Source: Candidatus Freyarchaeum deiterrae (GTDB lineage Archaea > Asgardarchaeota > Jordiarchaeia > Jordiarchaeales > Jordiarchaeaceae). Taken from it: a stretch of 64,000 bases of DNA. Made by a program: the position numbers and the translations under genes. Positions 26,961-28,011 of the stretch are shown in pieces. The stretch is taken from the NCBI GenBank assembly GCA_037305845.1, contig CP147778.1:2176001-2240000 (forward strand), read 5' to 3'. Each line of letters opens with the position of its first letter. Position 1 is the first letter of the stretch. The notes beneath the pieces were generated by a model. That model was given only the letters and a program-made list of their open reading frames with translations. It searched no databases and had not been told where the DNA came from.

Positions 26961-28011
26961 TTATCTTAGCACCGTCCTTTGAATCCAGGGTATGTCCACC
27001 TCATCCAGACGCCATTTTGGACGTACGAAGCTTTCTTCGATGCTTGTTTTTTGCCCACTCTTATACGCCAGTAAGCCAGTCCAAGCAATCATAGCTCCAT
27101 TATCCCCCGCTAAATTTTCGGGGACAACATTGAAACTCGCATCATGTTCATTAGAAATCAACTGTAACATCTCCTGTAACCGCTTATTCCTACTAACTCC
27201 GCCTGTCAAAAGAACCTCCTTTTTACCAGTGTGTGCAACTGCTCGCTCGGTTACTTCTGCAAGCATAGAGAAAGCAACTTCCTGTAAACTGTAGCATAGT
27301 TCCTCAATTTTGCACTCTTTACTTTTGTTCAAAGCGGCCGTTAACAGACCCGAATATGACAAATCCATTCCCTTTACTGTGTATGGTAGAGGTATGAATT
27401 TTTTTCCTTCTCTTGCGAGGCGTTCTATTTTTGCACCCCCAGGATGCTGGAGGCCCATTTCTCTTGCAAATACATCTAACATATTACCAATAGCGATGTC
27501 TAAAGTTTCTCCAAAAACTCTGTAGCGTCCCTCATCAAACGCAGTGACTATGGTATTACCCCCCGAAACATAAAGTGTTAGCGGATCTTCTAGCTTCATT
27601 GCCAGTTTACCTATTTCCACGTGCGCTACACAGTGGTTTACACCCACCAGAGGCACGTTTAGCAGTAGTGATAGGGCTCTTGCGGCCGTTGCAGCAGTTC
27701 TTAAGCAAGGTCCTTAAGGGAGAAAGGGATCAAACTCTTCTTAGCCCCGGACCTTGGGAGAAAGCTACCGCATTTATTTCTTTTGTGCTAATGCCTGCCT
27801 TTTCTATAGAGTCTCCTATAACTCTTTTAATTACTGCCGCGTGATGTTGAGCCGCCTCTCTTGGGTGTATACCGCCCTTAAGAGGAATATACTCATCCCA
27901 GATATTTGAGAGAACCACACCTTCATCACTCATTATCCCTGCTCCGAAAGTGTGGGCGGTTCCCTCAAGACCTAAACAATTAACAGGACTTTTTGTATTC
28001 TGTTTTTCCAA
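26961..28011 (-). CDS. kae1: KEOPS t6A synthase Kae1, intron-split: join(28011..27743,27714..26961), 340 aa
   Basis: Exon 1 GLEGTAHT...GGIHPRE...SQGPGL plus exon 2 GPCLR...NHCVAH...SGGNT...DNGAMIA. Confidence 0.93.
27715..27742 (-). other. 28-nt mRNA intron with canonical BHB motif
   Basis: CAAGGUCC-GGGG-CU^A-AGAAG..UUUCU-CCCU-UA^A-GGACCUUG; canonical cuts restore GPGLGPCL. Confidence 0.9.

Follow-up and report, generated by a model that had tools for sequence, protein, structure and literature searches.

Interrupted kae1 Gene and Its Predicted Intron

The locus described here raises the question of how Candidatus Freyarchaeum deiterrae obtains Kae1 from a gene that consists of two open reading frames (ORFs) in different frames (28011..27730 and 27656..26961 on the reverse strand). 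Unless a genomic coordinate is given, positions refer to the window, i.e., the whole 64,000-nucleotide stretch of DNA that was analyzed. The kae1 gene is preceded by rps27ae/rps24e and followed by bud32, with the kae1 stop codon directly abutting the bud32 ATG at 26960. Its identity as the KEOPS protein Kae1 (TIGR03722, arch_KAE1) is supported by the coverage of the full model over the two exons, by the HxxxH metal site (NHCVAH) and by the adjacent bud32: exon 1, which carries GLEGTAH and ends in SQGPG-L, matches model positions 1-78, and exon 2 matches positions 80-323 with 400 bits (cut-off 375). An earlier note on this DNA had proposed that a 28-nt insert splits kae1 in the GPGL-GPCL motif and is removed as a bulge-helix-bulge (BHB) intron from the mRNA of an essential gene. 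The insert was confirmed in both sequence and position (Table 1), and the essentiality of kae1 in Freyarchaeum is assumed by extension from other archaea and eukaryotes. The gene is present in a single copy, as no second kae1 was found in the closed genome (one contig, 3,576,204 bases), where the only other match is a HypF-like 774-aa frame with 27% identity. A promoter scan with a bacterial consensus was uninformative.

Table 1. Features of the kae1 region and of its predicted intron (window positions).
Feature	Coordinates	Strand	Remarks
kae1 exon 1	27743..28011	-	89 codons + CT of Leu codon; putative TTG start at 28011
kae1 28-nt BHB intron (predicted)	27715..27742	-	phase 2, inside Leu codon; in-frame TGA (27732-27730)
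kae1 exon 2	26961..27714	-	A of Leu codon + 250 codons, GPCLR...NHCVAH...
Exon-exon helix, 5' strand	27749..27756	-	Gln-Gly-Pro codons; 27756-27749 pair with 27713-27706, 8/8
Central 4-bp helix, 5' strand GGGG	27745..27748	-	exon: Pro third base + Gly codon
Bulge 1, CUA	27742..27744	-	predicted cut between 27743 and 27742
Intron stem-loop	27721..27741	-	from the fold of the kae1 51-mer
Central helix, 3' strand CCCU	27717..27720	-	intron side
Bulge 2, UAA	27714..27716	-	predicted cut between 27715 and 27714; stop in exon-2 frame
Exon-exon helix, 3' strand	27706..27713	-	Gly-Pro-Cys codons
19 "orphan" codons	27657..27713	-	between kae1 intron and first possible exon-2 start (GTG 27656)
bud32 (KEOPS kinase)	26334..26960	-	TIGR03724, 243 bits; same gene string as kae1

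The kae1 transcript can fold as a canonical BHB motif, and cuts according to the EndA rule restore the Kae1 motif. In the minimum free energy (MFE) structure of the 51-mer 27756..27706, the 8-bp exon helix is stacked on the 4-bp central helix (GGGG 27748-45 with CCCU 27720-17; three G-C pairs and one G-U pair), with the CUA and UAA bulges and an intron stem. The fold thus reproduces the two helices and the two 3-nt bulges drawn in the earlier note; the intron stem is also present, but its pairing differs slightly from the one drawn and comprises 3 bp, a bulge, and 3 bp. Archaeal BHB motifs are cut between bulge bases 2 and 3 (PMC2738675). As had been predicted, cuts placed between the second and third bulge bases take out exactly 27742..27715, giving GPGLGPCL and a 340-aa Kae1 with SQGPGLGPCLR that abuts bud32. 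There are 13 frame-restoring 28-nt deletions, and GPGLGPCL results only from the predicted one and from its 1-nt-shifted equivalent, which yields the same product. The reading of the unspliced message was also borne out: exon 1 ends after RRV at the TGA (27732-30), and in the exon-2 frame a TAA stands immediately before GGA at the junction.

The fold energy alone is unremarkable (z = -1.5, 13 of 200 shuffles being as good), and the case against a chance BHB in kae1 is based on geometry and conservation. In a strict BHB scan of the whole genome for motifs whose removal fuses ORFs, the BHB was the MFE structure only at kae1 and cbf5 among 12 candidates, and the same two genes occupied ranks 1 and 2 among the introns of up to 46 nt in a relaxed scan.

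Distribution of the Insert among Relatives

The host belongs to the Jordarchaeia/Freyarchaeia within the Asgard archaea, and its nearest named relatives (83-86%) include Ca. Jordarchaeum madagascariense along with further Jordarchaeia. Instead of the isolated case presented in the earlier note, the kae1 intron turned out to be lineage-wide and one of many split genes in the genome. The comparison of relatives suggested there showed that this codon is interrupted by an insert in 8/8 Jordarchaeia relatives with kae1 assembled and in 7/7 genomes of a second class (Odinarchaeia, including Odinarchaeota), the BHB being kept in both. The site is intron-free in other Asgard families and in Bathyarchaeia (111 loci read), as well as in 78 further JGI loci, which are all distant and were found with the joined protein as query, and the same break was not found in other families among the best 150 of 291 matches from 301 Asgard genomes. 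The eight closest relatives in the protein database are all fragments of 223-245 aa. A quick Kae1 tree (37 rows, with long-branch rows left out) requires two changes, and a single clade is not rejected (AU p = 0.18).

Several loci deserve a separate description. A kae1 gene from an unplaced lineage (L149, JGI 3300033156) carries a 25-nt intron at the same site with the central helix AGGU/GCCU; it groups with the Odinarchaeia family f20 and has a different upstream neighbor. Five loci from a second Jordarchaeia family (L006, L007, L008, L011, and L151) have near-minimal kae1 introns of 13-14 nt with a stem of only 1-2 bp. Four other breaks in kae1 were rejected as same-site introns: the one in G154:C10 (L135) is a frameshift due to the loss of 2 nt from the G run that immediately precedes GPG and is probably a sequencing error, and none of those in G040, G163, and G018 is an insert at the site in question.

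Compensatory Changes in the Fold and Selection on Codons

We collected 21 distinct kae1 intron alleles of 13-32 nt, which represent all three phases and each lead to a stop if unspliced; the same cut rule restores GPGLG[PA]CLR in 21/21 of them. Across these alleles 98% of 293 cells are paired, compared with 31-63% in slid controls, and the central helix, which takes the forms GGGG/CCCU, GGGG/CUCC, GGGU/GCUU, CGGC/GCUG, and AGGU/GCCU, is paired in 98.8%. Two-sided changes occur in 6 of the 14 pairs, and covariation amounts to 0.48 versus 0.20 after shuffling and at most 0.14 after sliding; since the alleles are kin, these counts are not independent events and no probability is attached to them. 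One exon-exon pair is formed by two Gly third positions and is therefore synonymous; it is paired in 20/21 intron alleles by five pair types, versus 38/111 intron-free loci, and the complete 8/8 exon helix occurs in 18/21 intron alleles versus 7/72 distinct intron-free junctions, the controls in both cases being mostly Bathyarchaeia. The MFE structure of the 13-14 nt and Odin-type alleles is a near-BHB and not an exact BHB. Taken across the aligned alleles, these patterns indicate that the kae1 BHB is kept by compensatory changes in two Asgard classes, with selection presumably holding the synonymous exon bases in pairing.

Intron-free kae1 genes still pair at 6-7 of the 8 exon-helix positions, which is explained by the nearly palindromic character of Gly-Pro codons (GGNCC...GGNCC). 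This near-palindrome suggests how an intron could settle in kae1: flanking Gly-Pro codons that are almost self-complementary even in its absence may have offered a ready-made landing place, and once inserted it would have been tolerated thanks to its excision by a permissive EndA.

For the orphan codons, which separate the intron from the earliest potential start of exon 2, the synonymous to non-synonymous ratios are 8:1, 11:1, 11:1, 6:2, 5:1, and 6:2, which indicates that these codons, translatable only after joining of the exons, are under purifying selection. Among the alleles, the first usable exon-2 start ranges from codon 3 to codon 24 or does not exist at all, and the resume codon is preceded by UAA, UGA, UGG, AAA, or AGA, and never by a match to the take-off Leu codon.

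Proposed Splicing by EndA and RtcB and Alternative Explanations

We conclude that the kae1 insert is, with high probability, a pre-mRNA intron spliced by EndA and RtcB, as the earlier note had proposed; this reading draws on covarying inserts at the same site, a single kae1 gene, purifying selection, the presence of EndA and RtcB, and a joined copy in a congener (see below). Two paralogues of EndA, alpha and beta (G000:1920673-1921314 and 1733135-1733752), are encoded in the genome along with RtcB. The alpha paralogue of EndA is closest to the Aeropyrum pernix enzyme (3P1Z) and retains the triad Y125/H133/K164, the substrate-binding Arg and Trp (R157/W183), and the loop lysine K44 that confers broad specificity; the second paralogue is devoid of the catalytic His. 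In the proposed mechanism, EndA would cleave both bulges behind their second base and release the 28-nt intron, RtcB would join the exons, and the joined mRNA would direct the synthesis of full-length Kae1 for KEOPS and t6A formation, while an unspliced message would give a 93-aa dead-end peptide.

The rtcB gene (G000:C1:1452824, reverse strand, L268) is likewise interrupted, by 29 nt at LPD|AHQGYG with a relaxed BHB, hence production of the ligase may in turn require ligation. This dependence of the ligase on a ligase speaks for a variant explanation, in which a genuine intron leaves the mRNA by a route different from EndA plus RtcB, such as another ligase or self-splicing. We regard this variant as very unlikely, because the conserved geometry is that of an EndA substrate and all motif-restoring cuts obey the EndA rule. 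Group I and II ribozymes, with a catalytic RNA core of hundreds of bases, are far longer than the kae1 inserts; at 13-32 nt and free of ORFs, the latter are far too short for self-splicing and hold neither a ribozyme core nor a homing-endonuclease ORF.

Still more improbable is a split gene, the two exons of which would be translated as separate polypeptides that assemble into Kae1 in the absence of splicing. The two pieces are indeed entered as separate ORFs in public databases and a GTG occurs within exon 2 at 27656, yet this explanation would leave untranslated the 19 codons before the GTG that appear to be under purifying selection; moreover, a usable start is variable in position or missing among the alleles, and neither the covarying BHB nor the exact joined copy would be explained.

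Passage of the insert by translational recoding, i.e., a programmed frameshift or a ribosome hop, would agree with the hairpin beside the junction and with the unspliced frames, which have a fixed offset within any one genome. The earlier note had already discarded frameshifting on account of the UAA that blocks the exon-2 frame in this genome, and the alleles reinforce this judgment: their inserts differ in length, fall in all three phases, and include in-frame ones with stops, so that the offset is not fixed, and take-off and landing codons are unmatched. Recoding is a highly improbable alternative, even less likely than a split gene.

An assembly artefact or a decaying pseudogene, conceivable for a genome of metagenome origin, is practically negligible, given that the insert recurs in 21 distinct alleles from independent assemblies, that both exons are stop-free with a synonymous excess, that a second kae1 is lacking, and that the published complete Ca. 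Freyarchaeum genome, presumed to match this one, was checked with long reads (PMC11291895).

Joined kae1 Copy in a Congener

The splicing of kae1 by EndA and RtcB predicts a joined sequence, and one such sequence was identified. A single 90% cluster of proteins contains both split products (P0176, ending in GPGLRKF, and P0175) and full-length products (P0178 and P0180) with identical residues. The contig of P0178, termed L183 (Logan, SRR28530378_3580), is 12.6 kb long, 80% identical to the kae1 region, and syntenic with it; the split products lie on other contigs. It lacks exactly the 28 columns 27742..27715 and thus carries the predicted joined junction (L183 9414-9470), while keeping the exon traits of intron alleles (8/8 helix, GGGG, and CUA), a combination found in 0/111 intron-free loci. 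With 76-77% identity to five GTDB congeners, L183 does not match any of them. The short repeat units at the C-terminus of rps24e (window 28385-28497, reverse strand), which are rich in Lys, Glu, and Pro (KAEPKEKP), are different in length in L183.

The L183 contig represents either a spliced cDNA or a precise genomic loss of the intron, and is supportive of splicing but not decisive. It spans a divergent gene pair, and thus fits DNA as well as RNA; a proposed route of precise intron loss leads by way of spliced RNA (PMC2738675). We lean slightly toward a cDNA, that is, the product of splicing in vivo. Slippage at a TAAG direct repeat was rejected as the source of the junction, as it deletes 27 nt and not 28 and leaves the frame unrestored (in the allele of the window). 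A joined cbf5, which would be a second witness, was not found in the ten closest clusters, and the spliced-junction pattern had no match in JGI contigs, the pattern being too narrow for the variant in L183. A search of the literature for SRR28530378 returned no mention of it; from the timing of the accession, we presume that it may belong to PRJNA1095168. In that project, DNA and RNA come in two replicates from an enrichment of hot-spring origin, of which Asgard archaea make up 0.5-1.4% (PMC11297162).

Comparison with Known Introns

Introns of the BHB type in a pre-mRNA are known from cbf5 of Desulfurococcales and Sulfolobales (Watanabe, 2002; Yoshinari, 2006; Yokobori, 2009, PMC2738675). Like the crenarchaeal cbf5 intron, the kae1 intron is a short ORF-less insert (16-44 nt in cbf5, 13-32 nt in kae1) within a codon of a conserved motif in a gene for an RNA-modification enzyme, with a BHB at its borders and cuts between bulge bases 2 and 3; in both cases the host has a two-subunit EndA and the intron is lineage-wide with losses. 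In contrast to cbf5, kae1 is a t6A gene of Asgard archaea (Jordarchaeia and Odinarchaeia), its intron lies in the GPGLGP loop and not at the catalytic Asp, its BHB is canonical, unlike the mostly relaxed motifs of cbf5, and its splicing is deduced here, whereas that of cbf5 is proven by cDNA. In Haloferax volcanii, the 5'-UTR of HVO_1309 contains a BHB that is cut in an mRNA by EndA, releasing a circular 46-nt intron (Schwarz, 2020, PMC7714728; reviewed in PMC10485636); however, the EndA of that host is homodimeric, and the intron, lying in an untranslated leader, does not gate a reading frame as that of kae1 would. Introns of archaeal tRNA and rRNA share with kae1 the motif, the size range, and the presumed enzymes, the difference being that the host RNA of kae1 is a protein-coding message. 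In Freyarchaeia such introns are highly abundant, 92-95% of tRNA genes being reported to have them (PMC11291895; bioRxiv 10.64898/2026.10.13.758758), and the passages found in these two sources contain no mention of mRNA introns.

A more distant parallel exists in eukaryotes. The HAC1/XBP1 mRNAs undergo unconventional splicing by IRE1 and a tRNA ligase, which is RtcB in animals. They resemble kae1 in that a protein-catalyzed cut of the mRNA and rejoining with a tRNA ligase restore the reading frame, but involve a different nuclease and substrate shape and are stress-regulated, so that the relation is one of analogy and not homology. This system is mentioned in PMC13149111.

Among the papers found, archaeal mRNA introns in coding regions are described for cbf5 only, together with the HVO_1309 intron in a 5' UTR, and a 2023 review expects more of them (PMC10485636). 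Reports of a kae1 intron were not found in a search whose coverage left subscription journals largely outside; the mechanism is thus known from cbf5, and its occurrence in kae1 and in the Asgard lineage is unreported in the literature searched. The present case would add a universal t6A gene whose intron is fixed in two classes of Asgard archaea, the group closest to eukaryotes, as well as a genome in which numerous genes are split in this manner, and suggests that introns in protein genes can build up and persist without a spliceosome, given a permissive tRNA endonuclease. The mRNA of this single-copy, normally essential tRNA-modification gene very probably depends on tRNA-splicing enzymes. 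A further possibility, which we consider rather doubtful, is that an ancient kae1 intron shared with Odinarchaeia has been kept by selection as a switch tying t6A synthesis to tRNA-splicing capacity. Public databases wrongly annotate Kae1 and further core genes of these lineages as fragments, an error that has consequences for metabolic reconstructions and for trees built from marker genes.

Other Split Genes in the Genome

At least eight further genes of the genome look split like kae1. The scans recovered cbf5, an HD-domain gene, an aconitase-family gene, ahcY, pcm, and ppsA, and removal of the insert restores a conserved motif in each; since relaxed motifs are missed (gatE, rtcB, and ychF were not recovered) and the lower ranks are mostly chance, the BHB scan is not a census. 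We consider it likely that many housekeeping mRNAs of Jordarchaeia (at least nine split genes) are routinely spliced by EndA and RtcB, independently of a spliceosome.

The cbf5 gene (G000:C1:1483446..1483415, reverse strand, L134/L153) has a 32-nt canonical BHB intron at the catalytic Asp codon, the same codon as in the experimentally spliced crenarchaeal intron. This intron is present in Jordarchaeia and also in three other families, f13, f16, and f18 (26-41 nt), and absent from f4, f6, f7, f8, f12, and f15, and the downstream frame is full length in Odinarchaeia. By this survey of loci, the introns of cbf5 and kae1 differ in range.

In ahcY, which encodes S-adenosylhomocysteinase (G000:C1:1876050-1877700, reverse strand, L264), there are three breaks, namely an insert of ~56 nt at EETTT|G, a 29-nt hairpin with BHB-like borders at KWE|FDN, and a third, longer one of about 250 nt that separates GHPS from VMDMSF. 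The aconitase-family (LeuC/HacA-like) gene (G000:C1:2636190, reverse strand, L265) has a 33-nt BHB insert with a stop at VHEMLG|MRIA. BHB inserts were also observed in the HD-domain gene (31 nt at HDIGH|GPFSH; G000:C1:987065, forward strand), in pcm (32 nt at ISAP|HM; G000:C1:2244134, forward strand), and in ppsA (30 nt at AED|LPG; G000:C1:1661667, reverse strand).

Two observations concern other parts of the window. A 658-aa predicted membrane-anchored protein rich in Gly, Thr, and Ser, of unknown family, is encoded at 4181..6157 (reverse strand). The ychF gene contains a 31-nt hairpin insert at the P-loop (GKPNSG|KTTF; 15720..15690, reverse strand) with a relaxed BHB (3 of 4 central pairs and an exon helix of 2 bp), the removal of which gives a frame of ~400 aa; its relatives at 86-93% are truncated and several at 81-82% are full length, pointing to a patchy distribution within the genus.
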